Shown one piece after another: positions 11,389 through 44,595 of a DNA stretch of 48,872 bases. The notes under the pieces are model-generated. The model had not been told where the DNA came from. It was given only the letters and a program-made list of their open reading frames with translations, and did no database searches. Within the stretch, counting starts at the first letter, position 1. Each line of letters opens with the position of its first letter. Source of the stretch: Paenibacillus sp. 598K. Lineage in GTDB: Bacteria > Bacillota > Bacilli > Paenibacillales > Paenibacillaceae. The DNA lies in contig NZ_BFBX01000005.1 of assembly GCF_003851045.1 (NCBI RefSeq), positions 1-48,872 of the forward strand, given 5' to 3'. The translations under genes and the position numbers were made by a program.

Positions 11389-11492
11389 AGGTGAGGCTCC
11401 TTTCGTGGATTGAGATTGAATTAATATACTATAAAACGAATTTTTATTCAATTCTAGATCGGCGACTCCATCTCCAACCTGTAATACCGCCC

Positions 11493-11648
11493 GGCGCGCC
11501 ACTGTAACTCTAGTTTGTAGAGTTATTCGGTCCACGGCCCGCCTGGCGCGCCACTGTAACTCTAGTTTGTAGAGTTAATCGGTCCACGGCCCGCCCGACG
11601 CGCCGCTGCAACTCTAGTTTGTAGAGTTATTCGGCCCACGGCCCGCTC
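11493..11648. repeat. 3 tandem copies of a ~52-bp unit, each containing the palindrome TAACTCTA-gtttg-TAGAGTTA
   Basis: Direct reading gives GGCGCGCCACTGTAACTCTAGTTTGTAGAGTTATTCGGTCCACGGCCCGCC x3 with a few substitutions. The array lies upstream of the AT-rich promoter region of the 10780..11388 gene. Confidence 0.85.
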
Positions 11649-11742: not shown

Positions 11743-12492
11743 CTACCGTTTCGCGATAATACCGAAACGGTCTGCGGTAGTGCGGATGCCGCGGTTGGTG
11801 CGATGCGTCTCGATGTAGCGCTCGAGTATCCGCAGGTCGTCCGTTTCGCGGCCGAAGTCTGGGATGATCGGTGTATGCGTCAGCAGGAAGATCAGATCGT
11901 CGACGGTCTCATAATACTCCGTGACCGTGTAGTCGAACGCACGGATATCCCGGAAGCCCGCTGCCTCCAGCTCGGCGCAGCATCGCGCCTGGAGGGCGCC
12001 GGGCTGCTCGCCCCAGCTCTGGCCGCGTCCGAACGCTTCCTTGAGCTGGTGCTTGTCGCCTTCGCCGACCTGCTGCGTCACGAAGACGCCGTCGGCTGTC
12101 AGCACGCGGGCGATCTCCTCCGCATGCCACTCGGAATGGCGGGAGGAGACGAGGTCGAACAGGCCGTCCGGGAAGACGAGCCGCTCCGCCTCCATCTGCA
12201 GGAAGCGCGCGTGCGCGTGACCAGCGCGGGCGGCGTTGCGCTTCGCCGTCTCGATCATCTCGGACGAGCGGTCGATGCCGATGAGCAGACGCACCGTCCC
12301 GGCGATCGAGAGCGCTGCCTCGCCGCCGCCGGTGCCGATGTCCAGCAGTAGTGATGCAGGCGTAGCGTGCGCGGCCACTTCGTGGTACATCTCCCAGGGC
12401 GCGCCTTCGGTTACGCACTTCACTCGGCTGAAGTCCCAGCCGTTCGTGCGGCCGATCGCATTATAGAAGGTTTTGTAGTCAAAGTTGTTCAT
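11743..12492 (-). CDS. Class I SAM-dependent methyltransferase
   Basis: Motif I reads LLDIGTGGGEAALSIA, with acidic motif II and FDLVSS downstream. GAAAGGTG RBS. Confidence 0.85.
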   Translation of the reverse strand: MNNFDYKTFYNAIGRTNGWDFSRVKCVTEGAPWEMYHEVAAHATPASLLLDIGTGGGEAALSIAGTVRLLIGIDRSSEMIETAKRNAARAGHAHARFLQMEAERLVFPDGLFDLVSSRHSEWHAEEIARVLTADGVFVTQQVGEGDKHQLKEAFGRGQSWGEQPGALQARCCAELEAAGFRDIRAFDYTVTEYYETVDDLIFLLTHTPIIPDFGRETDDLRILERYIETHRTNRGIRTTADRFGIIAKR

Positions 12493-12723: not shown

Positions 12724-14076
12724 GTGACAAGATCACAAGGGAAAGGCGGGCGTATCGTGGATGTCGTAAGCCAGTTGAGGATATTGAAGCAAATCTATAG
12801 CGAGAGCACAACATGGGATGAGGAGATGGGGGTGTCGGTGCATCGAATACCGTCAACCGTCACAGCACAGGAGCTGCAGGCGCTGGAGCAGGCGGGGCAT
12901 GCGCCGAACAACTGGGTCTATCCTGCGCATGACGAGACGTTGGCCGAGCTGAAGCGGCTCGTCGAGCGGTGGACGCTCGCCGAGGCTGCGGATGCCTTCG
13001 TCGCCTCACTCTGGTCGGCGCCGATGATCTGGCGCGCGCTGCTGCCGGGCAAGCTGCTGGCGGAGGCGATGCCTGAGCATGCGTACGAGCCGTATCCAAG
13101 CTCAGCCACCTGCCAAATCTGCGGCTTGGCGGACGGGGGTGGCGTCGACGCCAGTCTTCAGTGGTACTTCCGCATGATCGAGTCGACGCCGCTCGACGGC
13201 AACCCGCACGGGTACGTGCTGGCGCTGCGCGAGCTGGCGGCTGCCGGTCAGGTGCCGCAGCCGACAGCGTCGGACCGCTATGCGCTGCGTCGCCTGCTGA
13301 CGATACTGAGAGAGCTGCCGCCCAAGACGCGTTATAGCAAGATCGATCCGCTCCTCAAGAAGGAAGCGCTGCTGCCCGTACGCGACAAATATCCCTATCG
13401 CGGCCTGCTCGAGACGCTTGGTCTGATCGGCGTCCTCGACACGGAGGCGTACCCGGGACTGGCGACGACCTTCCTGCCGTACCGCAAGCGGGACGAACGT
13501 CCCAATACGAGGGTGGAAATCCAGGCCCCGCTCGCATGGTGGGACTCCTCGGTCGGCATCAATGAGCGTACGCTGGCACAGTTGTTCGGGGCCTACGACT
13601 TGACCGAGGTCTCGGCGTCGGACAAGCCCGAGCCCGTCCCCGCGCTGGCAGAGACGGTGACCGGAGCGCTGGCCAGCAGGAAGGCGCCGCGCGCCGCTAC
13701 GCCCAAGGCATCCCCGGACGCAGGCAAGGGGCCGGTGGAGGCGGGGGATGTGTATGCGGTGCGCATCCGCGAGGGCGCATGGGTGACCGTCTACTGCCAT
13801 GAAGTCAAGGACAATCGGGCCCGCGTCGAATACATGGACGGCATCTATGCAGATATGCCGTCCAAGGCAGAGCTGAGCCAGACATTCCGTCCGCGACGAG
13901 ACGGCAGATGGCAGTGCCGCTCGGCGTCGATCGACTCGACGAGTTGGGTCCGGCGTATCGCTCGAGGGATCGCTTGTCCGCAGTCAGAGCTGCCGGAGCC
14001 GGATCGCTTCCCCTTCCATGGCGCCAAGGATTTGGCGCATATGGCCAACTGGTGCTTTCCCGAGTTGAAATCCTGA
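12724..14076 (+). CDS. Hypothetical protein (about 440-450 aa). The start is ambiguous: GTG at 12724 or GTG at 12757.
   Basis: Long ORF with coding-like composition and no recognisable motif. Contains CQICGLADGGG. Confidence 0.5.
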   Translation: MTRSQGKGGRIVDVVSQLRILKQIYSESTTWDEEMGVSVHRIPSTVTAQELQALEQAGHAPNNWVYPAHDETLAELKRLVERWTLAEAADAFVASLWSAPMIWRALLPGKLLAEAMPEHAYEPYPSSATCQICGLADGGGVDASLQWYFRMIESTPLDGNPHGYVLALRELAAAGQVPQPTASDRYALRRLLTILRELPPKTRYSKIDPLLKKEALLPVRDKYPYRGLLETLGLIGVLDTEAYPGLATTFLPYRKRDERPNTRVEIQAPLAWWDSSVGINERTLAQLFGAYDLTEVSASDKPEPVPALAETVTGALASRKAPRAATPKASPDAGKGPVEAGDVYAVRIREGAWVTVYCHEVKDNRARVEYMDGIYADMPSKAELSQTFRPRRDGRWQCRSASIDSTSWVRRIARGIACPQSELPEPDRFPFHGAKDLAHMANWCFPELKS

Positions 14077-28559: not shown

Positions 28560-30116
28560 TTGAGCCCATCAGAAGTGTGGATACCTGTCGTGTTTTATTG
28601 GCTGCCAATGCTTATTTTCTTCTATATGGGATTGGATGTGTTGCTGCGCAATCCAAAAAAGCTGGAGCATATTTTGGTCAGCTTGACGATTTTGTGCTAT
28701 TTCCTGTTATTCCTTGAAGAATACATCCGCTATATGCTGCCGATCGAGTACAGTCCGGCGCTTGCGGCGCTATGGTTTGCCAATGTCGGTATCGCCATCC
28801 CGGGGCTAGGCTTTCATCTGCTTGCCAAGCTGATCGGGCTGGACAAGCGGCTGCCGCGTCCATGGTATCCTTACATTTTTCATGTGCTGCTGCTGGCGAT
28901 CCCGGCAAGCTTCCTTAGTCGCGGCGAGCTGATCTCGGCGCAGGAGTTCGTCGCGGTCGGCGTCTGGAAGTGGCCAGTGGCCAACGCGGCCTATTACGGC
29001 ACGCTTACGGCAAGCCTGTCGCTGAGCCTGATCTCGATCGTGCTGCTACGCATCGCCCGCAAGCGCAACAATCGATATGCTCTCAAGGAGCATAACGGGA
29101 TTTTCACTCTACTGGAGTATGGCAGCATCATTACGTTTAGTTGGGTCGTGCTCTTCGGTTATTTCCAGCTGGGCGAGTTCGTGCCGCCGTATCCATACCT
29201 GTATGCGGGATTGATCTGGTGTTTCGTGTTGCGTCTGGCGATGCAGCGATACGAGTTTCTTAATTATAATGGTCACCGTTATGAGAAGCTGTTCCAGATG
29301 AATCCGCAGCCGATCCTGCTGGTCGCCTCGACAGGTAAGATCAAGGAAGCCAATCCGAGCGCCCGGCAGTTGTTCTACCAAGTGGATCTAGTCTCCGCGA
29401 CACTTCACACGCTGGGCGGCGAGGCGTTGCATTACCAACTGCTGCAGCGGAAGGACATCCACGAGCAGGAGATGACGCTGCGCAATGGCGACCGCTCCAT
29501 CGAGGCGCTCGTCAGCGGAGATTATGTAACCGTTAACGATGAACCGCATGCGATCCTGATCGTCCATGATATTGGCGCGCGCAATGAATCGCTGCGACGA
29601 ATCGCGCACATGGCGTATCACGATCCGCTGACAGACCTGCCGAACCGCAGACAGTTCTACGACAAGCTGAATCATGCTATCGAGACGGCTGACGATCGCG
29701 AGCTAGCTGTCATGGTCATCGACCTCGACGACTTCAAGCGGGTCAACGACCGTTACGGTCATGAAGCGGGAGATCTCGTGCTGCGGCGCGTGGCGGCTAT
29801 CCTACGGGAGACGGTGGGCGAGGCGGGCACGGCGGCGCGCATCGGCGGCGATGAGTTCGTGCTCTTCTTCGTCCGGGCTCAGGGATGTCCTGAGGCCGAG
29901 GCTGTGATCGAACGGATCGAAGGCGCTGCGACATCTACGGTGCTGGAGTATGGCGGCGAGCGCCTGCAGATCCGCATGAGCATCGGCATGAGCCGCTACC
30001 CTGCCGACGGCGCGACCCCAGACGAGCTGCTCAAGCATGCCGACCATACGATGTATACCTTCAAGCAAGGCCGCAAGCGCGACGCTGCCGTGGCGGAGGA
30101 GCAGGAGCGGGCTTGA
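28560..30116 (+). CDS. Membrane sensor diguanylate cyclase (multi-TM N-terminus, PAS-like domain, GGDEF). TTG start.
   Basis: RQFYDKLNHA...VMVIDLDDFKRVNDRYGHEAGDLVLRRVA...ARIGGDEFVLFF is a GGDEF active site. Five to seven N-terminal TM helices. GGAGGAG RBS before the TTG. Confidence 0.8.
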   Translation: MSPSEVWIPVVFYWLPMLIFFYMGLDVLLRNPKKLEHILVSLTILCYFLLFLEEYIRYMLPIEYSPALAALWFANVGIAIPGLGFHLLAKLIGLDKRLPRPWYPYIFHVLLLAIPASFLSRGELISAQEFVAVGVWKWPVANAAYYGTLTASLSLSLISIVLLRIARKRNNRYALKEHNGIFTLLEYGSIITFSWVVLFGYFQLGEFVPPYPYLYAGLIWCFVLRLAMQRYEFLNYNGHRYEKLFQMNPQPILLVASTGKIKEANPSARQLFYQVDLVSATLHTLGGEALHYQLLQRKDIHEQEMTLRNGDRSIEALVSGDYVTVNDEPHAILIVHDIGARNESLRRIAHMAYHDPLTDLPNRRQFYDKLNHAIETADDRELAVMVIDLDDFKRVNDRYGHEAGDLVLRRVAAILRETVGEAGTAARIGGDEFVLFFVRAQGCPEAEAVIERIEGAATSTVLEYGGERLQIRMSIGMSRYPADGATPDELLKHADHTMYTFKQGRKRDAAVAEEQERA

Positions 30117-30123
30117 GGCGGGA

Positions 30124-30588
30124 GTGTCATCGCGACAAATCGCACAAAATGTCCCGCATGCGGCGCCGTAGCCGGGAGATGTGCGAAATATCGCACAAAA
30201 TGTGCCACATACGGCGCCGTGGCCGGGAGATGTGCGAAATATCGCACAAAATGTCCCGCATGCGGCGTCTTGGCCGGGAGATGTGCGAAATATCGCACAA
30301 AATGCCCCGCATGCGGCGTCTTGGCCGGGAGATGTGCGAAATATCGCATAAAATGTCTCGCGTGCGGCGCCGTAGCCGGGAGATGTGCGAAATATCGCAC
30401 AAAATGTGCCACATGCGGCGCCGTGGCCGGGAGATGTGCGAAATATCGCACAAAATGTCCCGCATGCGGCGCTTTGGCGGAGAGATGTGCGAAATATCGC
30501 ATAAAATGTCTCGCGTGCGGCGTCTTGGCCGGGAGATGCGCGAAATATCGCACAAAATGCCCCGCATGCCGTTCATGCGATAGGCCAT
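30124..30588. repeat. Tandem array of about 9.5 copies of a 51-bp unit (GTGCGAAATATCGCACAAAATGTCCCGCATGCGGCGCCGTAGCCGGGAGAT). Each unit has the hairpin GTGCGA-aata-TCGCAC plus a second variable GC-rich hairpin.
   Basis: Exact 51-bp periodicity read directly from the sequence. Variation is confined to about 10 positions in the second hairpin. The all-frame ORFs 30113..30583, 30219..30590, 30127..30588 and 29996..30598 are periodicity artefacts (51 = 17 codons). Confidence 0.9.
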
Positions 30589-30593
30589 AGCGC

Positions 30594-30652
30594 GACAAAG
30601 GAGCTGCCCTCAGTCATCCAACGATGACTAAGTGAGCAGCTCCTTTTCCATT
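30594..30652 (+). terminator. Rho-independent terminator (11-bp stem AAAGGAGCTGC/GCAGCTCCTTT with a structured loop, then TTTTCCATTTT)
   Basis: It lies immediately after the 51-bp array. This implies the array is transcribed as the 3' UTR of the GGDEF gene. Confidence 0.5.
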
Positions 30653-30727
30653 TTAGCAACGGATATATATAGCAATGTGTCAGAGGTTGCGCACCAGTCG
30701 CCCACCAGCCGTCACCGGGCCTTCTTG

Positions 30728-30933
30728 CCGCGCTATACCGCAGCTTGCCGCCACCGCGCCTTGTTCCGTGCTATACCGCAGCTTCCCGCCACCGGGCCCG
30801 CTAACCTACACCGCCGCTTGCCGCCACCGCGCCTCGTTTCCGCGCTACATCGCAGCTTCCTGCCACCGTGCCGATTCCGCGCGACACCACCGCGCACCCT
30901 TCCGCGCTACGCCGCCGCAGCTCCTCACCTCGC
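30728..30933. repeat. Five to six degenerate GC-rich ~36-bp direct repeats (CCGCGCTATACCGCAGCTTGCCGCCACCGCGCC-like)
   Basis: Read directly. Located between the terminator and the 3' end of the GH92 gene. Confidence 0.6.
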
Positions 30934-33126
30934 TTAACGCTTCGTCAGCGAGAAAGGCAGCTCCTCGGCGCTGTAGCTCCGGTAAGTCGGAGCCAGACCG
31001 AGGCGGAAGTCAAGCGAGCGTCCAGCCATCAGGTCCTCATGCGTTACATACAGCTTGGTATAAGTCTCGCCGTCCTGCGCCACATGGCTGACGAAGTTCG
31101 ACTGCGAGTTGTTGTTGTCGGTCGTGATGCGCAGCTGATTGCCATTTGCCAGCTCGATCGTGACGCTGTCCAGCAACGGGATGCCCAGCACATACTGATC
31201 GGTGCCCGGGCAGACCGGATAGAAGCCCATCGCGCTAAACACGTACCAGCCTGCCATACTGCCGTTGTCCTCGTCGCCGGGGAAGCCGTCGAAGCCGCTG
31301 TTGAACAGATGTGTCATGATCTGCTTGATGACGACCTGCGACGACGCCGGCTGCCCGACATAGTTGAACAGATACGGGAGGTGGAAGCTTGGCTGATTGG
31401 AGATCGCCACCTGGCCAAAGTCGACCGCCGCCATCTCGCTCATCTCGTGGATCTCGAAGCCGTAGCCTCGCACATCGAAGTCCGGCGCCTTGTTGCACAG
31501 CTCGGTTAGCTTCTCGAAGAAACGCTCATCCGAGCCGTACGCCTCGATCAAGCCCTGGAAGTCATGGTAGACGGCAAAGCCGTTCTGCCAGGCGCTGCCC
31601 TCCGCATAGTCGAGTCCCCAAGCGGTGTCGTCGAAGTTCGGGCGGAACTCACCGTCCTTATCCTTGGCCCGCATGAAGCCGAGCTCGGCGTCGAAGATGT
31701 TGCGGTAATTGCGCGAGCTCTGCCGGTACTGCTCGGCCAGCTCCGGTTTGTCCTGCTGCTCCGCCACCTGACTGATGCAGAAGTCGCTGTACGCGTAGTC
31801 CAGTGTATGGTTGACGCTCTCGTGATGATCGAGCGGCACATAGCCGTGCGCGAGATAGTCTGTGGTGCCTTGACGACCGTAGCCTTGGACCTCGCTCTGC
31901 GTAGTTGCGGCCTTGATCATCGCCTCCAGCAGCTCCGGCATCAGATGCGGTGCGATCCCTTTGACGGCAGCATCGGCGATGACGGCATCGATCAGTGTCC
32001 CCGGCATGATGCCACGCTCGTCGGGAGAGAGCCATTTCGGCAGGAAGCCCGTCTCGCGGTAAGAGTTGAGGAAGCCCTCCAGCATCTCTGCATACTCGTC
32101 CGGCGCGATCAGCGAGTAGAGCGGGTAGACGGTCTTGTACGTGTCCCAGAAGCCGTTGCTCGTATAGAGGATGCCCGGCTTGACGGCCTTGGCCGTCGTG
32201 TCGTAGTGGATCGGCGAGTTGTGCTCGTCCAGCTCATAGAACTTCTGCGGGAACAGGAACATCCGATACAGACACGTGTAAAAGGTCCGCAGTTGCTCCT
32301 CATCGCGGTGCGTCACCTGGATCTTGTTCAGGTAATGATTCCAACGCTCGGCCGCTTGCACCTTCAGCTCCTCGAAGGTTGGCGTCAACTCGCGACTATA
32401 GTTCAGCCGGGCTTGCTCGAAGCTGATATAGGAGGTTGCCAGCTTGGCTTGGAGCGTCCCTCGCTCGCAGCCAACGAAGCGGATGACCAGATGCTGATTG
32501 TCCCCCTCCAGCTCAGTGGCTGTCGTGAAGTTGCCTTTGTCGTCATAGACGCCGGATGCGGCGGCATCGATCTCGCGGTCGAAGGTGAGTACGGCGTAGA
32601 TGCCGAATTTGTCGTCGCGGCAGCCGGCGAAGTTGTTGAAGAAGCCGCTAAGTGTGCGATTCTCAACGTCCAGCGTCAGCTTGCTTTTCTGCTTGCTATT
32701 GATGACCAGACCTGCCTGCTGAGCGGAATTGTAGCGGATCTGCAGCGCCGCGCCGTAGCAGGTTGGCGTCAGCTCGGAGACGATGTTGTACCGCTGCTGT
32801 TTGACCCGCACGTAGTGCGGCTTGAACACCGCTTCCTCCGGCCGATAGGAGCTCTGGCAGGTGAATACGATGCCTCGCACCTTGGTATCGGCGATTGGGG
32901 TCATCAGGAAGGTGGCGAAGTCGCCCATCCACGGACTCGGCTGATGCGTCAGACGGAAGCCCTGGAATATCCGGTCATTCGGGTTGAAAAACCAGTTGCC
33001 CTCGTTTTCGGTCTGAACGGCAAAGTGGTTCATGCCAAACGGCACAGCTGTGTAAGGCAACGTATTGCCGTTGGAGTACGTGTACTTGTTGTTGGTTCCT
33101 TGACGGGTATCGATGTAATGCAGCAT
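30934..33126 (-). CDS. GH92 alpha-1,2-mannosidase-like glycoside hydrolase, cytoplasmic (730 aa)
   Basis: N-terminus MLHYIDTRQGTNNKYTYSNGNTLPYTAVPFGMNHFAVQT and an overall length of about 740 aa are typical of GH92. Start at ATG 33126, 8 nt after AAAGGAG. The track start at 33165 has no RBS. Confidence 0.85.
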   Translation of the reverse strand: MLHYIDTRQGTNNKYTYSNGNTLPYTAVPFGMNHFAVQTENEGNWFFNPNDRIFQGFRLTHQPSPWMGDFATFLMTPIADTKVRGIVFTCQSSYRPEEAVFKPHYVRVKQQRYNIVSELTPTCYGAALQIRYNSAQQAGLVINSKQKSKLTLDVENRTLSGFFNNFAGCRDDKFGIYAVLTFDREIDAAASGVYDDKGNFTTATELEGDNQHLVIRFVGCERGTLQAKLATSYISFEQARLNYSRELTPTFEELKVQAAERWNHYLNKIQVTHRDEEQLRTFYTCLYRMFLFPQKFYELDEHNSPIHYDTTAKAVKPGILYTSNGFWDTYKTVYPLYSLIAPDEYAEMLEGFLNSYRETGFLPKWLSPDERGIMPGTLIDAVIADAAVKGIAPHLMPELLEAMIKAATTQSEVQGYGRQGTTDYLAHGYVPLDHHESVNHTLDYAYSDFCISQVAEQQDKPELAEQYRQSSRNYRNIFDAELGFMRAKDKDGEFRPNFDDTAWGLDYAEGSAWQNGFAVYHDFQGLIEAYGSDERFFEKLTELCNKAPDFDVRGYGFEIHEMSEMAAVDFGQVAISNQPSFHLPYLFNYVGQPASSQVVIKQIMTHLFNSGFDGFPGDEDNGSMAGWYVFSAMGFYPVCPGTDQYVLGIPLLDSVTIELANGNQLRITTDNNNSQSNFVSHVAQDGETYTKLYVTHEDLMAGRSLDFRLGLAPTYRSYSAEELPFSLTKR

Positions 33127-33166
33127 GGGATGCGCTCCTTTTGGATAGTTTTCAATACAAAGCAAC

Positions 33167-35903: not shown

Positions 35904-36023
35904 GAGAGAGCCTCCCTTAGTCTGTAAGTAATGGAATGAGTGAGCAAGTGACGGAGCGCCGCCGATCCCGCATCCGCGAGCCTACCCGACGCGCAGGTCC
36001 GGCCGAAGCCCGCATCTACGACG

Positions 36024-36878
36024 CTACTCGGCGCGCCGTGTCCGTCCGAGGATCGCATCCATAGCGCTCGACGTGTTGTAGATAATCTGCTCGCTATGAT
36101 GCGTGTACGGCGGGATCATCTCAGCTGTGACATAGCTGTCGTAGCCGATGCCACGCAGCGCGGTCATGACGGCGGGGTAGTCGACATCGCCGGCCAGCAG
36201 ATCGACGAAGCCGTGCAGTCCGCCGGCCTGGCGACGATAATCCTTGAAGTGCACCCGCTTGATCCGCTCGCCGAGGATACGGATCCACTGCTCGGGATAG
36301 CCGTTGTGCAGCGTGTTGCCGACATCGAAGTACGAGCCGACATACGGCGATTGGTGTGCGTCGAGGAAGTTGCGCATCTCCAGCGGCGTCAGCAGGAATT
36401 TGTTCCATACATTCTCGATGGCGATCGAGACGCCGGCCTTCTCCGCGTAGGGCACGAGCGAGCCGATCGCTTCCAACGCGCGGTCATAAGCGACCTCGTA
36501 ATCGACCACCTCGCTGCCCGGGATGAAGTCGACGCCGACGGCGCCGGGGATGACCAGGATGGCATCGACGCCAAGCGCGGCTGCTGCTTCCAGCTGCTTT
36601 TTGCACACATCGACAGCTTTGGTCCGCTTCGCCGCGTCCTCGCTCGTCATTGCATAATCCCAGTACAGACCGGTCGCCAGCCCTGCCAGCTCCAGCTGCG
36701 CATCCTCCAGACGCGCCTTGATGTCGGCCAGCTCCTTATCGGACGATTGCAGACTGAGCTCGCCGGTTTCGTTCAGTGACAGCTCAATGCCGTCAAAGCC
36801 GGCTTTTTTGGCCGTTGCGATCGCAGATGCGATCGTTGTTCCTTCTCCGAATGACCAGATATTGATTCCTTTTTTCAT
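36024..36878 (-). CDS. Sugar phosphate isomerase/epimerase (xylose-isomerase-like TIM barrel)
   Basis: MKKGINIWSFGEG...AGFDGIELSLNE...IAIENVWNKFL is typical of the AP-endonuclease-2/xylose-isomerase-like fold. AAAGGAGG RBS. Confidence 0.85.
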   Translation of the reverse strand: MKKGINIWSFGEGTTIASAIATAKKAGFDGIELSLNETGELSLQSSDKELADIKARLEDAQLELAGLATGLYWDYAMTSEDAAKRTKAVDVCKKQLEAAAALGVDAILVIPGAVGVDFIPGSEVVDYEVAYDRALEAIGSLVPYAEKAGVSIAIENVWNKFLLTPLEMRNFLDAHQSPYVGSYFDVGNTLHNGYPEQWIRILGERIKRVHFKDYRRQAGGLHGFVDLLAGDVDYPAVMTALRGIGYDSYVTAEMIPPYTHHSEQIIYNTSSAMDAILGRTRRAE

Positions 36879-39132: not shown

Positions 39133-39459
39133 TCGCAACCTCTCCTCTCCGATGTTCTCTCATTGCAAGCCACTGTTGGCTTTCGATCACCCCAACATCA
39201 GCCTGATCCGCCTATTGGCGTATTATACCTGTTTCGTACCTGTTTCGTACCATACCGTTTGGGCGCTTCTCCGTAATGCAGTGCGGGTGCATCGACATTA
39301 GGCGGACTTTGCACATGTGGAGCGTGTGCGGTTGGTAGGGCGTATTGTTACTAGTAGTTGTCCTGGACTGCGCAAGATGTCAGCATCCGCTCAAAGCATT
39401 CGATGTGTAGAGAGTCAAGTCGGCGCCAGTCGCTGTTGTAGCGGAGGGACAGAAACGTA

Positions 39460-39660
39460 GCAGGCATAGGAACATAGGTAACCTTATTTGGTGTAAAAAC
39501 GGGGATTTCGCCGATTTTAGGAACCTCAGTATCGTTATTTTGGCTTAATGAGGTCAAAACGGGCAGTTGGAGGGGAAATAACGATACTTATGTTCCTCTG
39601 GCCCCGCAATTAGACGGTTTTGAGCGAAATAGCGATACTCATGTTCCCAACGCTCGCGGT
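39460..39660. repeat. Cluster of a ~16-nt motif (CGATACTyATGTTCC, with AAATAACGATAC) present four times in both orientations, forming a ~19-bp imperfect inverted repeat pair 35 nt apart
   Basis: Copies at 39467 (reverse complement), 39509 (reverse complement), 39571 and 39624. Also GTTGTAGCGGA x2 (39433, 39659) and TACCTGTTTCG x2 (39225). Confidence 0.6.
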
Positions 39661-39741
39661 TGTAGCGGAAACGATGCGTCGAATCGCCAGAGTAGGGGAG
39701 GAGCCGCAGCGCTGGACCCACCGCTTCCGTACCCCCATCGC

Positions 39742-40040
39742 CCGCGCACCCGTCAGCCATGCGACGGCTCTCGTCAGCGTGGCGCGGCGCCCCGCGAAGC
39801 CGCAGTTCGCACCCACGGTGCCAGAGCGCCCCCTAGGCGTCCGCGCACCCGTCAGCCGTGCGACGGCTCTCGTCAGCGTGGCGCAGCGCCCCGCGAAGCC
39901 GCAGTCCGCGCCCACGGTGCCAGAGCGCCCCCATCGTCCGGCGCACCCGTCAGCCGTGCGACGGCTCTCGTCAGCATGGCGCAGCGCCCCGCGGAGCCGT
40001 AGACCGCGCCCACAATGCCAGAGCGCCCCCTGTGCGTCCG
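39742..40040. repeat. 3 tandem copies of a ~99-bp GC-rich unit
   Basis: CGCGCACCCGTCAGCCrTGCGACGGCTCTCGTCAGCGTGGCGCrGCGCCCCGCGAAGCCGCAGTyCGCrCCCACGGTGCCAGAGCGCCCCC... with periods of 99, 99 and 98 nt. The ORFs 39620..40057(+) and 39610..39915(-) are artefacts. Confidence 0.85.
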
Positions 40041-40107: not shown

Positions 40108-42948
40108 CTAGGTCTTCTCGATGCCGACGAGCCCGCCCTTGAGGCCGTAAGCGCCGTTTTCCTTGCTGAGGGCCAGCTTGCCGAGGCGCTTCGATTTCTC
40201 GATGGCGAGCGTCATGATGCCCGCTTCGATCTCAAGCCCCTTCGTCTGGCCGATCTCCAGCGACACCTCCCATTTGCTGAACTTGCCAGCGTCGTCCTTC
40301 TCTGCGCTAATATTGAGGGAGAAGTCCATCGTGCTGCTCAACGCAATCTTGTTGGACAGCTCGTCTGCGTCCAGCTCCTCGCTCGTGAACCAGCTGCGCA
40401 TCTGCTCCTGGATCTCGTCCTGATCCTGCAACTGCGAGGCGAAGCTCTCGCCCCAGGCGTCGAACTCCGGCACCAGGAAGAGCGTATCCGTCCCGATATC
40501 CGCAGCGGTGCCGGCATAGCTGGCGCCTTTTTTGTCCTTCATCGTATTCTGGACCGCGCCGACAGAGTTTTTCACAAGGCCGGAGATCGGCGCGACCAGC
40601 TTGGCCAGCGTCTTCGCCCATTCCGTCGTTTCCTCGCCGTACTGGAAGGGGAGGCCGGCCTCGACGGCGATCTCGACCTCCTTGAGCGTGCCGTCCATCC
40701 AGGCGAGCTCCAGCGCGATCCCGAAGTCGACGCCGGTGCCGGCGATCTCCAGCGACAGCGCGCTCTCGAACTCGAGGGTGCGGCGTTTGGAGCCGGAGAG
40801 CAAGGCGGTCGCCTTCTCGGCCAGCTTGGCCAGATCGGTCGAGTCGCCGAATGACCCGGCTTTATCCGTCACAGCGTCCTTGTCGTAGCGATTGAGCCGC
40901 TTGTGGCCGAGCGCCGCCTCCGCTTCGAACACACCCGCATTAACCTCGGCGGCGACTTGGCTGGTCAAGCCGACGTCGACGTGATTGTCCTCGTTGCTCA
41001 TCTCCTGTTGCTCGATCATCGCCGCCCACAGCTCGGCCTCCTCGAGCTTGCTCTTACCGGACTTGCCGCCATGGCCCCACAGCGAGTCGGCCGCTCCTGC
41101 GGAGAACTTGCGCATCTGTCGATACATCCCGTACGACATCAGGTTGACGGCGCTGTGCGAGTTGCTGCCCTGCGCTGCGAGGAAAAATCCGACCGACGCG
41201 TTCACGTCGAGACCAAAGCCGCCGAAGCCGCCGCCGATGCTCACTTGCGATTCCAGCGACAGCTCGCCTTCCTCCTTTTCCGCCTCCGCGCCGAGCGAGA
41301 TCAGGAAGTACGCGCCCGCCTGGATCGGAATCTTCAGCTCGAACTCGAGCGAGGCCGAATCGCCAGCCGCAGGCACGGCCAGATCGATGATTTTGGCGAC
41401 CTTGGCGAAGCCTTTGTTGAGCGAGTCTTCCTCGATCACATATTTGATCGCCTTGCCGGCGATATCGTCGGCCGTCACCTGCTGGCCGACCTGGGTGATC
41501 AGCTCGGAGCGCTTGATCAGATCCGGTCCGGCGCCCGTTTCCTTGTCGCCCTTCGTCACCTTGCGCGCTTCCGATTCGGCTTTTGGCATGATGATTTTGT
41601 AGAGCTCGGCCGCCTTGGCCTGCGCCCCGGTTTTGGAGGCTTTGGCGATCTTGTCTCCGGCGTCGGCATGACTTCTCGCTACGCTGTAGGCTGACGTCTG
41701 CGCCGCTTCCTTAAGCTGCTTGGTCGTCGGCTCCTGCGGCAGCAGCTGCGTGAGGATGCTGTCCGCGTGCGTGCCCATCACTTTGTCGACCGAGCTCTTG
41801 GAGGTGCTATGCGATTCAGCCTTGGCCAGCATGCCATAGTATTGCTTTCCTACGTTGCTCTTGCCGCTGGTGAGGCTGTTGCTGTCCAGTTGATTGTCGA
41901 TGTCGGTCCGGGCCTGCGTGCGTCCGGCTTCCTTGAGACTGTCGCGGAAGGCGTTGAGCTCGTCCGACCTGCGGAAGGCGCTGCGCCCGACGCCAAGCTT
42001 GAGCAGCACGACCTGACGGATCGGGTCGGCCAGACTGGCTTTATAGACCTGATCGATGACCGTGGCGTCGAACAGACTGTTCTCCAGTCGGCTTCGCTTG
42101 CCCGCTTCATCTGTTCCCAGCGTCTTGATATCGACATGGACGGAGAGGGCGCCGAGATCGTTTTGCATATCCTGCAGGATCGATTGCTTGCCGGCAGTCA
42201 GCGTCGCCTCGCCGATCTGCCGGGCTTCGCCGACCGTTTGCTTTTCGGCGCTTTTATCCGCTTCCTTGAGCTGCTTGCTCAGCTCGACGCCGGGCTTTGG
42301 AGCGACCATGGCGAAGCCTTCCTTGGCTTTGGTTTGCAGCTTTTCCTTTTGCGTATCGCCGAGCCTGGGAGTTGCGGTGCTCCCCGCATATTTTTTGAGC
42401 GTTTCGCCGAGTACATTTTGCGAGTCGACGAGTTGCTCCGCATACGACTTGGCATCCTTTTTTTGCTGGTCAGTGACGCTGCCTGTATTCTCCACTTGCT
42501 GTTGGACGGCACTAATGGCCGCTTGTCGCAAGCTGTTGCGTAACGCCGCCGTCTGCTTGTCCTTGGCTAGGAAAGTCGTCAGCTCGGTGGCTGTCGTACT
42601 TTGGAGCCCGGTGAAATACTTGTCGGCGAGCCGATTGGCGGTCGCATCCTTCTGCAGGTCAAGCTCGCCTTGCCGGATCTCCTCCTTGGACGGACCGCTC
42701 GGAGGCGGCGATCCGCTTCCGCTGGACTGCTGGCTGCGCGCGAGGTTGCGATTGCCGAGCGAGCGCTGCAGCGTGTTGCGCAGATCAAGAGGGGTGGGAG
42801 ATTGCGTGCCCTGAACGGGCGGCGATGTCGGGGTCTGCGTTGCAGTCTGCTGGGGAGCTTGCGTTTGGGTCTGCGTTTGCGCGGCAGTCTGTCGGTCTTG
42901 ATCGGAGGGTTTCTTTTTGCCGGTAAAGAGGGACGGGAAGGGAGCCAT
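40108..42948 (-). CDS. Large hypothetical protein (946 aa). It has a low-complexity Q/T/P-rich N-terminus, the leader motif TLQRSLGNRNLAR, and a Lys/Ala/Glu-rich body with a Gly-rich segment (GGGFGGFGLDVNASVGFFLAAQG).
   Basis: ATG 42948 (MAPFPSLFTGKKKP). No signal peptide or TM helix. It shares the leader motif with the divergent gene at 43180. Candidate injection-system cargo (inference). Confidence 0.6.
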   Translation of the reverse strand: MAPFPSLFTGKKKPSDQDRQTAAQTQTQTQAPQQTATQTPTSPPVQGTQSPTPLDLRNTLQRSLGNRNLARSQQSSGSGSPPPSGPSKEEIRQGELDLQKDATANRLADKYFTGLQSTTATELTTFLAKDKQTAALRNSLRQAAISAVQQQVENTGSVTDQQKKDAKSYAEQLVDSQNVLGETLKKYAGSTATPRLGDTQKEKLQTKAKEGFAMVAPKPGVELSKQLKEADKSAEKQTVGEARQIGEATLTAGKQSILQDMQNDLGALSVHVDIKTLGTDEAGKRSRLENSLFDATVIDQVYKASLADPIRQVVLLKLGVGRSAFRRSDELNAFRDSLKEAGRTQARTDIDNQLDSNSLTSGKSNVGKQYYGMLAKAESHSTSKSSVDKVMGTHADSILTQLLPQEPTTKQLKEAAQTSAYSVARSHADAGDKIAKASKTGAQAKAAELYKIIMPKAESEARKVTKGDKETGAGPDLIKRSELITQVGQQVTADDIAGKAIKYVIEEDSLNKGFAKVAKIIDLAVPAAGDSASLEFELKIPIQAGAYFLISLGAEAEKEEGELSLESQVSIGGGFGGFGLDVNASVGFFLAAQGSNSHSAVNLMSYGMYRQMRKFSAGAADSLWGHGGKSGKSKLEEAELWAAMIEQQEMSNEDNHVDVGLTSQVAAEVNAGVFEAEAALGHKRLNRYDKDAVTDKAGSFGDSTDLAKLAEKATALLSGSKRRTLEFESALSLEIAGTGVDFGIALELAWMDGTLKEVEIAVEAGLPFQYGEETTEWAKTLAKLVAPISGLVKNSVGAVQNTMKDKKGASYAGTAADIGTDTLFLVPEFDAWGESFASQLQDQDEIQEQMRSWFTSEELDADELSNKIALSSTMDFSLNISAEKDDAGKFSKWEVSLEIGQTKGLEIEAGIMTLAIEKSKRLGKLALSKENGAYGLKGGLVGIEKT

Positions 42949-43179
42949 GCACTGTCCTCCTTAAAGAGAGTATCGAATGTTAGAATCTGATCTGATTATA
43001 CATGACGCTTTCTTCCCTGTGTGACATTTTTTTGCGTGTGTCGCAATCGTTCGACATTTTTTTTATACATTTTGCAGGTAAAAGGGAGGAAGGTGTAGAA
43101 ATAAACAAAATTCCAGTATTTGAATCGGAACAGAGTGAAAGCAGCGGCGGGTCGAGGGCTGCAACGGGGAGGGCGAGGA
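42949..43179. promoter_or_regulatory. AT-rich divergent promoter region with the direct repeat GACATTTTTTT x2
   Basis: The 230-bp gap between divergent genes has the lowest GC content in the window. Repeats at 43021 and 43053. Confidence 0.4.
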
Positions 43180-44595
43180 ATGGCACGTAAATATGGCAAG
43201 CTGCCTCCGCTTGACTCGCATCCCGAGAAGCTGGACGAGGAGAAGACGCGACGTCCGGCGGCCAACCGCGAAGCGCCGCCGCTGGAGGAAGGGTCTCAGA
43301 CGCTGCAGCGATCGGTCGGCAACTCGGCGATCCGTCGGCTCGCCCGGACGGTAGCTGTCTCCGGCTCCGGCCCGCTGCTGCCCCGCGAGCCCAAGTATGC
43401 GCGATATGCCCGCTGGCTGCTGGCGCATGTAGAGGCGGACGGACGCCAGGAGCTGCTGCGCCGCTTTTACGCGCTGACGATGCCGCAGAAGCGGGCCGCC
43501 CTGGTCAATACAGTCGGCCGTCCGGCGCTGCAGAGCGAGCAGTACACGCTGGATCTGGACGACTTCGACCGCCAGGTAACCGCTGTCAAGCATGTACAGC
43601 TGCGACATGGCGAGTCGGAGAAGGAAGCGGACGAAAGCGAGCGGGGAGCGTTCCAGACGAAGGCAAGCCTCACCCCGGCCGGTCTGCTGCACCCGTACCG
43701 CGAACTCCTGTTGTGGCTCAACTACAAGGCCGTCAAGCAGGGCCAGGCCGCGCTGATGCTGCGGTTTGGCCGGCTGTCCGTCCCCCGCAAGCAGCTCGCG
43801 TTGCATCGGATGATGCGATTCCGCAGTATCACTGTCGATGCCTTCACCCGTCAGATGACGCTGCCGGTACTCGAGCGCGAGTGGGTCGACTGGGAGACGG
43901 TACGCGCGTCGATGGCGATGGCGGAGCGCGTGAAGGCCGAGGGCGGCCGGAGCGAGGCTGAAACTGGCGGAGAGCGCACAGACGGCGGAGATACAGCAGC
44001 CGACGAGCTGCTGGAGGGACTAGACGCCGGAGGACTGCCGACTGCGCTGCTATCGCTACTGGGGCTTGCGGACTCGGACGCCGGGACTGTAGGGATGGAC
44101 GATCGCAAGGGCGCTCGCGCCTCGGAGGAGCCTGCGACGGGTCAGGCTCAGGAGCGCCAGCCGTCGCCCGGAGCATCCAGGTCGGAGGCGATCAAGCCAG
44201 ACGCAGGCGGGGTGGCGCTGCTCGCCGGCAGGACCGCGGACTACTGGACGAGGCTGCTGCTAGGCGGCAAGGGCGCGCAGCCGCTCGCCGCCATCGCCGA
44301 GCGCTGTCGCAGCGGCGGCTTGGACAGGGAGGCAGTCGTCGACCGCTATCTCAACCTCGCGACCGCTCCTCCGGCAGGGCGGCGCAAGCAGCGCGACAAG
44401 CGGTTGCAGGCGTCGGGCTTCCGGACGGCGGCGGATTGCTTCGCCTTCCTCATCAGGGGCTTCGCCGCCTTCCTGATCCGGGGAGCGAAGGAGGGCAAGG
44501 ACAAGAGCTGCCGTCAGGCGCTCAAGCAATGGGACATCCCGGATGGCGCCGACGAGACGAAGGCGCAGGCGGCGATACTTGCAAGGCTCGGCTAG
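43180..44595 (+). CDS. Hypothetical protein (471 aa) with the N-terminal leader motif TLQRSVGNSAIRRLA. The C-terminal domain is Arg/Ala-rich and matches no known family.
   Basis: ATG 43180 lies 6 nt after GGGGAGGG. The motif sits at residues 41-55. The track start at GTG 43120 lacks an RBS. Confidence 0.55.
   Translation: MARKYGKLPPLDSHPEKLDEEKTRRPAANREAPPLEEGSQTLQRSVGNSAIRRLARTVAVSGSGPLLPREPKYARYARWLLAHVEADGRQELLRRFYALTMPQKRAALVNTVGRPALQSEQYTLDLDDFDRQVTAVKHVQLRHGESEKEADESERGAFQTKASLTPAGLLHPYRELLLWLNYKAVKQGQAALMLRFGRLSVPRKQLALHRMMRFRSITVDAFTRQMTLPVLEREWVDWETVRASMAMAERVKAEGGRSEAETGGERTDGGDTAADELLEGLDAGGLPTALLSLLGLADSDAGTVGMDDRKGARASEEPATGQAQERQPSPGASRSEAIKPDAGGVALLAGRTADYWTRLLLGGKGAQPLAAIAERCRSGGLDREAVVDRYLNLATAPPAGRRKQRDKRLQASGFRTAADCFAFLIRGFAAFLIRGAKEGKDKSCRQALKQWDIPDGADETKAQAAILARLG

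Follow-up and report, generated by a model that had tools for sequence, protein, structure and literature searches.

A tandem array of 51-nucleotide (nt) units lying between a diguanylate-cyclase (GGDEF) gene and its terminator in Paenibacillus sp. 598K is a young bacterial intergenic minisatellite, a member of a known general kind rather than a new system, and its function is unproven. We examined the array within a 48,872-nt stretch of this genome (contig NZ_BFBX01000005.1; hereafter the 48.9-kb window), following up an earlier, sequence-only reading of the same DNA. The interpretation that we favour, with modest confidence, is that of a locus-specific, lineage-restricted minisatellite, or variable-number tandem repeat (VNTR), born in place between stop codon and terminator. 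The array has the marks of such a locus: a non-coding unit within the 10–100 bp range, repeated head to tail, and a copy number of about nine here against three cores in the nearest known relative and none in relatives further removed. Within the data that could be searched, the element appears restricted to one locus in one shallow lineage.

A tandem array between a GGDEF gene and its terminator

Tandem Repeats Finder (TRF) places the array at 30132–30569, with a period of 51, 8.6 copies, 88% matches, 0% indels and a score of 680, by far the strongest repeat within the window. This confirms the period-51 tandem array that the sequence-only reading had described, with 8.6 copies instead of the 9.5 counted there; the 51 bp that it took for about five helical turns come to 4.86 turns at 10.5 bp per turn, and the periods in the relative are 50 and 51. 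In register, the array comprises a degenerate first unit, seven full units and a truncated, diverged last unit (w0, w1–w7 and w8; Table 1). The first unit is 76–82% identical to the full units and 65% identical to the last; it is orthologous to the first unit of the relative’s array, and the 3′ flank of w8 is orthologous to the relative’s 3′ flank.

Every full unit begins with ATGTGCGAAATATCGCACAAAATG, runs through about 19 nt of GC-rich sequence and continues with GCCGGGAG; laid out by its parts, it consists of a stem-loop, TGTGCGA-AATA-TCGCACA (7 bp), then AAAATG, the 19-nt GC-rich spacer and GCCGGGAG. A 32-nt core (GCCGGGARATGTGCGAAAKATCGCACAAAATG) recurs in five exact copies, the first of which is listed in Table 1, with the remaining four starting at 30222, 30273, 30375 and 30426. 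The 16-mer of this first hairpin, GTGCGAAATATCGCAC, earlier described as invariant, is exact in five of eight units and carries one mismatch in the other three. With up to three mismatches allowed, it matches at 8 positions (16 matches when both strands are counted), every one of them within the array; shuffles predict 0.49.

The GGDEF stop codon ends at 30116, and the array begins 8–16 nt downstream of it (the first unit 11 nt downstream), just after the gene as originally placed. The gene product matches WP_128655319.1 of Paenibacillus sp. 598K at 100% identity; look-ups of the exact GH92 and GntR-family proteins of the window found no record. On the far side of the array stands the intrinsic terminator of the gene, a long GC-rich hairpin that folds at −30.3 kcal/mol on the plus strand (z = −7.0) and −36.3 kcal/mol on the minus strand, in agreement with the strong terminator predicted there; it is followed by TTTTCCATTTT, is kept in the relative and is recognisable in P. 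daejeonensis. Because the hairpin folds equally well on the other strand, it may act in both directions, possibly also serving the convergent GH92 gene.

Since it lies between stop codon and terminator, the array is probably part of the GGDEF 3′ untranslated region (UTR) and co-transcribed with the gene. Of the earlier statement that it is probably transcribed, the position stands, and transcription itself remains inferred. From about 90 nt in P. daejeonensis, the predicted 3′ UTR would rise to about 295 nt in the relative and reach about 535 nt in 598K.

A single known locus in a shallow lineage

Judged by its homologues, the GGDEF gene belongs among Paenibacillus species close to P. daejeonensis. 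The window, the relative and P. daejeonensis have the gene order GH18, GGDEF, convergent GH92 and GntR-family regulator in common, and Paenibacillus sp. 1P07SE keeps the GGDEF–GH92 junction with one extra gene between GH18 and GGDEF. The relative, whose GGDEF protein is 94% identical to that of the window, is represented by two European Nucleotide Archive (ENA) assemblies and one Joint Genome Institute (JGI) assembly, which are virtually identical (100% and 99.99%). The only other array that we found occupies its orthologous site, between the same flanks, and consists of a degenerate first unit and three exact 32-nt cores at 50/51-nt spacing, followed by the same 3′ flank and terminator. The unit is absent from the GGDEF/GH92 spacer of P. 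daejeonensis, where only about 90 nt separate the stop codon from a recognisably homologous terminator, and from that of 1P07SE, and it is absent from the 3′ flanks of three further GGDEF homologues, whose neighbouring genes differ. A Logan contig from another relative (L033, SRR25666307_80436), with 94% GGDEF identity, ends 2 nt past the GGDEF stop codon, perhaps because a repeat there broke the assembly.

Wider searches gave the same picture. The exact 22-mer core had 0 matches in 185,579 species genomes, and a loop-degenerate form of the core pattern had 17 single matches there, mostly inside genes, where we estimate about 17 by chance. Viral contigs yielded a single, chance-level core match in one phage lineage, and plasmids and phages yielded no match to the array (blastn, distant mode). 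Apart from the two orthologous arrays, a profile of the unit (nhmmer) picked up only three metagenome sites carrying a 23-mer of the core; it detected no diverged copy in the rest of the window or across about 390 kb of fetched loci. In the JGI metagenome collection, which includes a 29.6-kb contig of the relative, the relative’s array was the only multi-copy match. The suggestion of a genome-wide element of the repetitive extragenic palindromic (REP) or BOX type thus finds no support, there being no second locus in the window, the 390 kb or the JGI collection.

In enterobacteria and Pseudomonas, REPs and bacterial interspersed mosaic elements (BIMEs) stabilise upstream mRNA as 3′ stem-loops. 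Like them, the 51-nt array places an imperfect palindrome of about 35 nt in a 3′ UTR between convergent genes and could plausibly impede 3′ exonucleases. REPs differ in three respects, none of them found for this array: they occur at hundreds of loci, they are usually in alternating orientation and they are associated with REP-associated tyrosine transposases (RAYTs). BOX elements of Streptococcus pneumoniae are built as boxA-(boxB)n-boxC, and their transcribed tandem boxB modules affect neighbouring genes (PMC3049150). The likeness lies in a tandem module (about 45 nt in BOX) that varies in copy number, is predicted to form stem-loops when transcribed, adjoins genes and is transcribed with them, longer arrays varying more in length (PMC3049150). 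BOX differs in being dispersed, composite and bounded by boxA and boxC, with insertion-sequence-like terminal inverted repeats (PMC3049150); here neither dispersal nor sequence similarity was found. Reading of the flanks, with no dedicated search, disclosed no terminal modules resembling boxA or boxC; each flank reads as a degenerate unit running into the stop codon or the terminator, and a repeat scan of 29900–31000 returned only three short inverted pairs, all within the array.

These comparisons bear on the proposal that the array is a dispersed mobile element of the REP, BOX or MITE (miniature inverted-repeat transposable element) type, stacked here and spread by a trans-acting transposase. 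Repeated insertion would give identical cores beside diverged short spacers, and REP-like inverted copies of different sequences do occur at other Paenibacillus loci (L030). Furthermore, two of the three metagenome contigs with the exact 23-mer are homologous to each other and carry it about 20 nt upstream of an IS1595-family transposase gene, where, on the transposase strand, it overlaps a promoter-like site, TTGACT-N17-GATATT. The likeness to that insertion-sequence region stops after 26–28 nt, however, and the Pfam-scanned open reading frames (ORFs) of the window include neither a transposase nor a RAYT gene. There is no second locus in the relative’s contigs either, and nothing beyond chance in the species genomes; the spacers are mutually homologous (about 74% identity between species by hand count, close to neutral), hence products of duplication, not insertion flanks; and the edge units have degenerated, as happens in arrays that are born in place. 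We therefore consider a mobile origin very unlikely.

Probable growth in place and uneven conservation

Identity between units peaks at a lag of four (94%), and the array contains a 204-nt higher-order repeat; it therefore grew partly by duplication of a four-unit block. The window and the relative have diverged by about 10% in the GGDEF gene, 21% at its third codon positions and about 16% in alignable spacer DNA. Across this distance the first unit, the last unit and both flanks are orthologous, with an interior of seven units here and two in the relative. The edge units are also the most degenerate, at 65–82% identity to the others. Together with block duplication, this edge degeneracy suggests that the array originated where it stands and expanded through slippage or unequal exchange, and speaks against insertion of a mobile element.

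Intergenic minisatellites, or VNTR loci, are used for typing by multiple-locus VNTR analysis (MLVA), and the mycobacterial interspersed repetitive unit (MIRU) loci of Mycobacterium tuberculosis are the classic 40–100-bp example. The present array resembles such loci in its head-to-tail units of tens of base pairs in an intergenic spacer, its difference in copy number between close relatives, its degenerate edge units and growth through unit and block duplication, and a period that is divisible by three yet non-coding. It departs from them in that MIRUs are one family at about 40 loci, often with short ORFs coupled to flanking genes, whereas this unit is found at one locus and its reading frames are not conserved; moreover, core and spacer here evolve at visibly different rates.

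That difference in rate is pronounced. Across the seven full units, GAG-ATGTGCGAAATATCGCACAAAATG has a single variable column out of 27 and the GC-rich half has 12 out of 24 (p = 0.0002). The relative’s three 32-nt cores are identical, and the spacers beside them are just 53–70% identical, for which equal rates would give P ~ 1e-5 per pair. Between the two lineages, only two differences are fixed in the 32 nt of the core, GAG/GAA and the loop change AATA/AAGA, and none falls in the half-sites of the palindrome.

Several points weigh against the minisatellite interpretation as we state it. A purely neutral minisatellite does not on its own explain identical cores with diverging spacers, and the conserved unpaired flanks of the hairpin (AAAATG and GGGAGATG) would be needless for a plain exonuclease barrier. 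Restricted to G/C positions, the contrast between core and spacer falls to 1/11 versus 9/19 (p = 0.049). Part of it is accounted for by a mutation bias from GC to AT, with C>T or G>A making up 13 of 22 changes. The two core differences give P = 0.02–0.09 at neutral rates of 16–21%, which is suggestive only. The search for copies covered the window and the fetched loci, so further copies may exist in 598K, and transcription of the array is judged from its position. Finally, the exact 23-mer core TGTGCGAAATATCGCACAAAATG occurs once in each of three soil-metagenome contigs (Table 1), where chance would supply about 0.1 matches by a rough estimate made without the known size of the collection. No Rfam family matched the metagenome contigs L022 and L023, and these 23-mer matches are probably coincidental and unconnected to the array. 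Taken together, the pattern suggests that the core is constrained or preferentially homogenised, with mutation bias explaining part of the contrast and not all of it.

Folding and RNA-level readings

Folded unit by unit, the 7-bp stem-loop TGTGCGA-AATA-TCGCACA forms in every unit, and the remainder of the unit pairs differently in almost every one. Of the two hairpins proposed by the sequence-only reading, only the first (TGTGCGA-N4-TCGCACA) is robust, and the consistent second hairpin is not borne out. Its supposed co-varying forms prove to be two helices: TCCCG can pair with CGGGA on either side, and GCCAC/GTGGC, instead of varying those pairs, forms its own helix in another register. The GCCAC variant is confined to w1 and w5, which are 98% identical through the four-unit block duplication; because these two units are copies of one another, it represents a single event. 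Pair counts on an alignment of 12 units from the two lineages revealed 0 pairs altered on both sides, whether in hairpin 1 or in either candidate for the second helix, and covariation scores for all three helices were no better than those of shuffles. The argument that variants retain pairing potential, and hence that structure is under selection, is not supported, and there is no evidence for selection on the second hairpin.

These data also bear on a role for the array as a sequence-dependent RNA element of the 3′ UTR, in which stem-loop, A-rich tail and GGA/UCCC motifs would together capture or dock a small RNA (sRNA) or an RNA-binding protein, as a sponge or landing pad, and so tune expression of the cyclase. 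The array occupies the same position between stop codon and terminator in both lineages, the single-stranded flanks of the hairpin are conserved along with it, and GGGAG and UCCC/CCCC motifs can be read in each unit; GGA may resemble the CsrA motif, and UCCC an anti-Shine-Dalgarno sequence. Set against this are the absence of covariation and the folding of single units, only 1.4–2.4 standard deviations (SD) better than shuffles. The whole array folds strongly through pairing between units, but does so on both strands (z = −9 and −11), so folding cannot pick a strand and the sense RNA is not singled out. Rfam gave no match at gathering score across the window (at E <= 10, 29500–31500 contains sub-threshold chance matches only), so that with neither a family model nor compensatory changes the array does not present itself as a structured-RNA family; and the unit is absent from all other GGDEF homologue loci examined, hence does not belong to any conserved regulation of this gene. 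An RNA element of this kind is possible, though we think it unlikely.

On the minus strand, the units might serve as weak promoters (TGTGcGATATT approximates an extended −10 and would fire antisense into the GGDEF gene) or as back-up terminators (GC hairpin plus TTTTG) for GH92 read-through. In the IS1595-like contigs the same 25-mer lies 17 nt downstream of TTGACT, a plausible transposase promoter, and a consensus scan finds three terminator-like minus-strand sites inside the array against 1.0 ± 1.0 expected. Those sites nevertheless occur in just three of nine units, a sigma-70 promoter scan of 29500–31500 returns 0 sites, no −35 element can be read in the array (best match 2/6), and the loop change in the relative, GATATT to GATCTT, weakens the putative −10, all of which makes minus-strand signals of either type highly improbable.

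A string of palindromes

The conserved part of the unit can equally be regarded as DNA, and a conserved palindrome with tolerated central changes would, on sequence grounds, fit a dimeric DNA-binding protein and an effect on mRNA decay equally well. Read in this way, the array is nine 18-bp palindromes, TGTGCGA-N4-TCGCACA, set 51 bp apart, which could form a decoy, titration or nucleation site for a dimeric protein in the manner of sopC or iterons. In the 7-bp half-sites no difference is fixed between the two lineages, both fixed differences fall in the 4-nt centre or outside the palindrome, where a dimeric helix-turn-helix protein could tolerate them, and the combination of identical cores with drifting spacers is also in keeping with binding sites. 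To our knowledge, none of the CRP, Rex, cre, NrdR, Spo0A, DnaA, PadR, Noc or dif sites fits the 7-N4-7 geometry.

The architecture matches that of the sopC centromere on plasmid F, in which a 43-bp unit is directly repeated 12 times and SopB binds the 16-bp inverted repeat that each unit contains (PMC3177203). Both systems have direct repeats of about 43–51 bp, each containing an inverted repeat of 16–18 bp (PMC3177203), and in both, conservation is stronger in the palindrome than in the remainder of the unit. Here, by contrast, the repeats are chromosomal, in an ordinary sugar-utilisation neighbourhood whose gene order persists in relatives that lack the array, and no binding protein is known; no candidate for one was found. 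Among the window’s ORFs a Pfam scan recovers no partition, replication or plasmid gene (neither parA/parB nor rep), which separates the locus from sopC-type systems. The window has no further occurrence of the palindrome, which therefore does not serve any promoter there as an operator, and copy number differs threefold between close relatives. A protein-binding array is accordingly a doubtful explanation. A narrower version, in which the 32-nt core (the 18-bp palindrome and its flanks) is under purifying selection through a specific protein, the array is a copy-number-tunable decoy or sponge, and the 23-mer upstream of the IS1595-family transposase is a second target of a related recognition system, is in our estimation distinctly improbable.

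Coding and CRISPR-like resemblances

Five frames have ORFs of 123–200 amino acids (aa) through the array, as expected where a unit of 3 × 17 nt is free of stops. A 17-residue repeat protein could in principle be read from a long ORF such as 30113–30583, whose TTG start can be seen to overlap the TGA stop of the GGDEF gene, and a period of 51 = 3 × 17 and the several long frames would agree with it. The relative’s 50-nt unit, however, breaks every reading frame and places successive units in different ones (its ORF reads REMCERSHKM, then GKCAKDRTKCP), from which it follows that the array is non-coding. Most differences between units are, moreover, non-synonymous in the TTG frame by hand count, no Pfam match reaches cutoff, and open frames on both strands are expected of a stop-free repeat. 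A coding repeat was rejected, and we give it next to no credence; the earlier dismissal of the ORFs as artefacts of 51 = 3 × 17 was well founded.

Clustered regularly interspaced short palindromic repeats (CRISPR) were likewise rejected, as they had been originally. The array recalls them in alternating identical, partly palindromic 32-nt repeats with short, more variable segments, but these spacers are 18–19 nt long and homologous to one another (53–98% identical), the array lies inside a 3′ UTR, and no cas domain or gene appears among the window’s ORFs scanned against Pfam.

Other repeats in the window and at related loci

TRF identifies four further intergenic minisatellites in the window, all unrelated to the 51-nt array (Table 1). 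The one at 11487–11646 is bordered on one side by the terminator of a methyltransferase gene (11743–12492, minus strand) and on the other by a transglutaminase-like gene’s AT-rich promoter region, and it resembles the 51-nt array in architecture with no relation in sequence. The one at 30709–30933 occupies the 3′ UTR of the convergent GH92 gene, on the far side of the shared terminator, and is present in the relative; it is 48% C on the plus strand, which for a read-through transcript is C-rich and G-poor and resembles a Rho-utilisation site. The spacer that contains the C-rich repeat at 39732–40030 shrinks from about 970 nt here to just about 240 nt in the relative.

Table 1. Coordinates of the array, its neighbours and other repeats (positions refer to the window unless a contig is named)
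Feature	Position	Strand	Remarks
Degenerate first unit (w0)	30128–30178	+	Weakened hairpin TCGCGA-CAAA-TCGCAC; nhmmer 46 bits
Seven full 51-nt units (w1–w7)	30179–30535	+	TRF and register; nhmmer 59–66 bits each
Truncated, diverged last unit (w8)	30536–30571	+	Merges into pre-terminator sequence; nhmmer 36 bits
32-nt core, first of five exact copies	30171–30202	+	GCCGGGAGATGTGCGAAATATCGCACAAAATG; exact-match positions
GGDEF diguanylate-cyclase gene	28560–30116	+	Membrane-bound, 518 aa, TTG start; Pfam GGDEF E = 3e-41
Intrinsic terminator of GGDEF gene	30594–30655	.	Long GC-rich hairpin, A-tract upstream, T-tract downstream
Convergent GH92 gene	30934–33129	−	Pfam
Minisatellite, 52 nt × 3.1	11487–11646		Perfect 8-bp hairpin TAACTCTA-GTTTG-TAGAGTTA and GC-rich half in each unit
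Minisatellite, 35–39 nt × 4.8	30709–30933	−	TRF and repeat scan; unrelated to 51-nt array
Minisatellite, 42 nt × 2.2	35967–36061		
Minisatellite, 99 nt × 3.1, C-rich	39732–40030		Spacer of about 970 nt between YbjN-like gene and 946-aa gene
Exact 23-mer core sites	L022 2346–2368; L025 187–209; L023 5803–5825		Soil-metagenome contigs

The relative has shorter versions, or none, of several of these minisatellites. Among GC-poorer relatives, with about 21 kb considered for each, P. daejeonensis has no minisatellite and 1P07SE has one, and the loci of three further GGDEF homologues have at most one short repeat. This distribution suggests that the 51-nt array is the largest example of a general tendency of the 598K genome, not a special device.

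Four copies of a 22-nt motif, AGGAACATAAGTATCGTTATTT, lie at 39465–39650, two of them direct and 51 nt apart, followed by two inverted and again 51 nt apart. The cluster is flanked by 16-nt direct repeats, TCGCKGTTGTAGCGGA, at 39430 and 39654, and its layout is reminiscent of a MITE or of paired transposon ends; in the relative the motif occurs once (L001, 20006–20027). In 1P07SE, the GGDEF/GH92 spacer contains an unrelated 52-nt × 2.2 repeat with a hairpin AAGCACC-AAAAY-GGTGCTT (L004, 11626–11742), located after the GGDEF terminator. We treat the recurrence of a 51/52-nt period in arrays with no shared sequence (11487 in the window, L004 and the cluster at 39465) as coincidence. In P. daejeonensis, CTTATTT/AAATAAA motifs recur at 51-nt spacing in an AT-rich spacer between two terminators (L003, 11730–11880), and no sequence link between them and the array was found. 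An ENA metagenome contig (L030, 11590–11790) bears REP/BIME-like direct and inverted copies of TAACGGTCACCAGCGC downstream of a GGDEF homologue. Three large ORFs of the window have no Pfam match at E <= 1e-5, namely 40108–42948 (minus strand, 946 aa), which is conserved in the relative, 12724–14076 (plus strand, 450 aa) and 43120–44595 (plus strand, 491 aa).

Origin, possible effect and use of the array

Under the minisatellite interpretation, the array would have arisen in the short spacer between stop codon and terminator, in the lineage of 598K and its nearest known relative, and its length would change by gain or loss of single units and of multi-unit blocks. The presumed mechanism is slipped-strand mispairing or unequal recombination between units, perhaps favoured by the hairpin that each of them carries. 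If transcribed with the GGDEF gene, the array would lengthen the 3′ UTR, every unit contributing one stable 7-bp stem-loop. In other bacteria, REP stem-loops slow 3′-to-5′ decay or create processing sites, and the likeliest effect of the array, if it has any, would similarly be in cis on the mRNA, with serial stem-loops slowing 3′-to-5′ decay or making processing sites. Alternatively, the array may be a nearly neutral by-product. Our search of the literature turned up nothing relevant on Paenibacillus intergenic tandem repeats or on the half-site sequences.

If the array is only a minisatellite, it would be of little practical value: strains of this Paenibacillus lineage could be typed with it as a hypervariable marker, and it cautions against ORF calls that run through it, which are artefacts, and against copy numbers taken from short-read assemblies, which may be wrong. 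Should the identity of the cores instead reflect selection, the array would be a natural, copy-number-tunable cis element in the bacterial 3′ UTR of a cyclic di-GMP (c-di-GMP) signalling gene. The build-up of minisatellites across intergenic spacers would be a property of the genome as a whole, possibly worth a study of its own.

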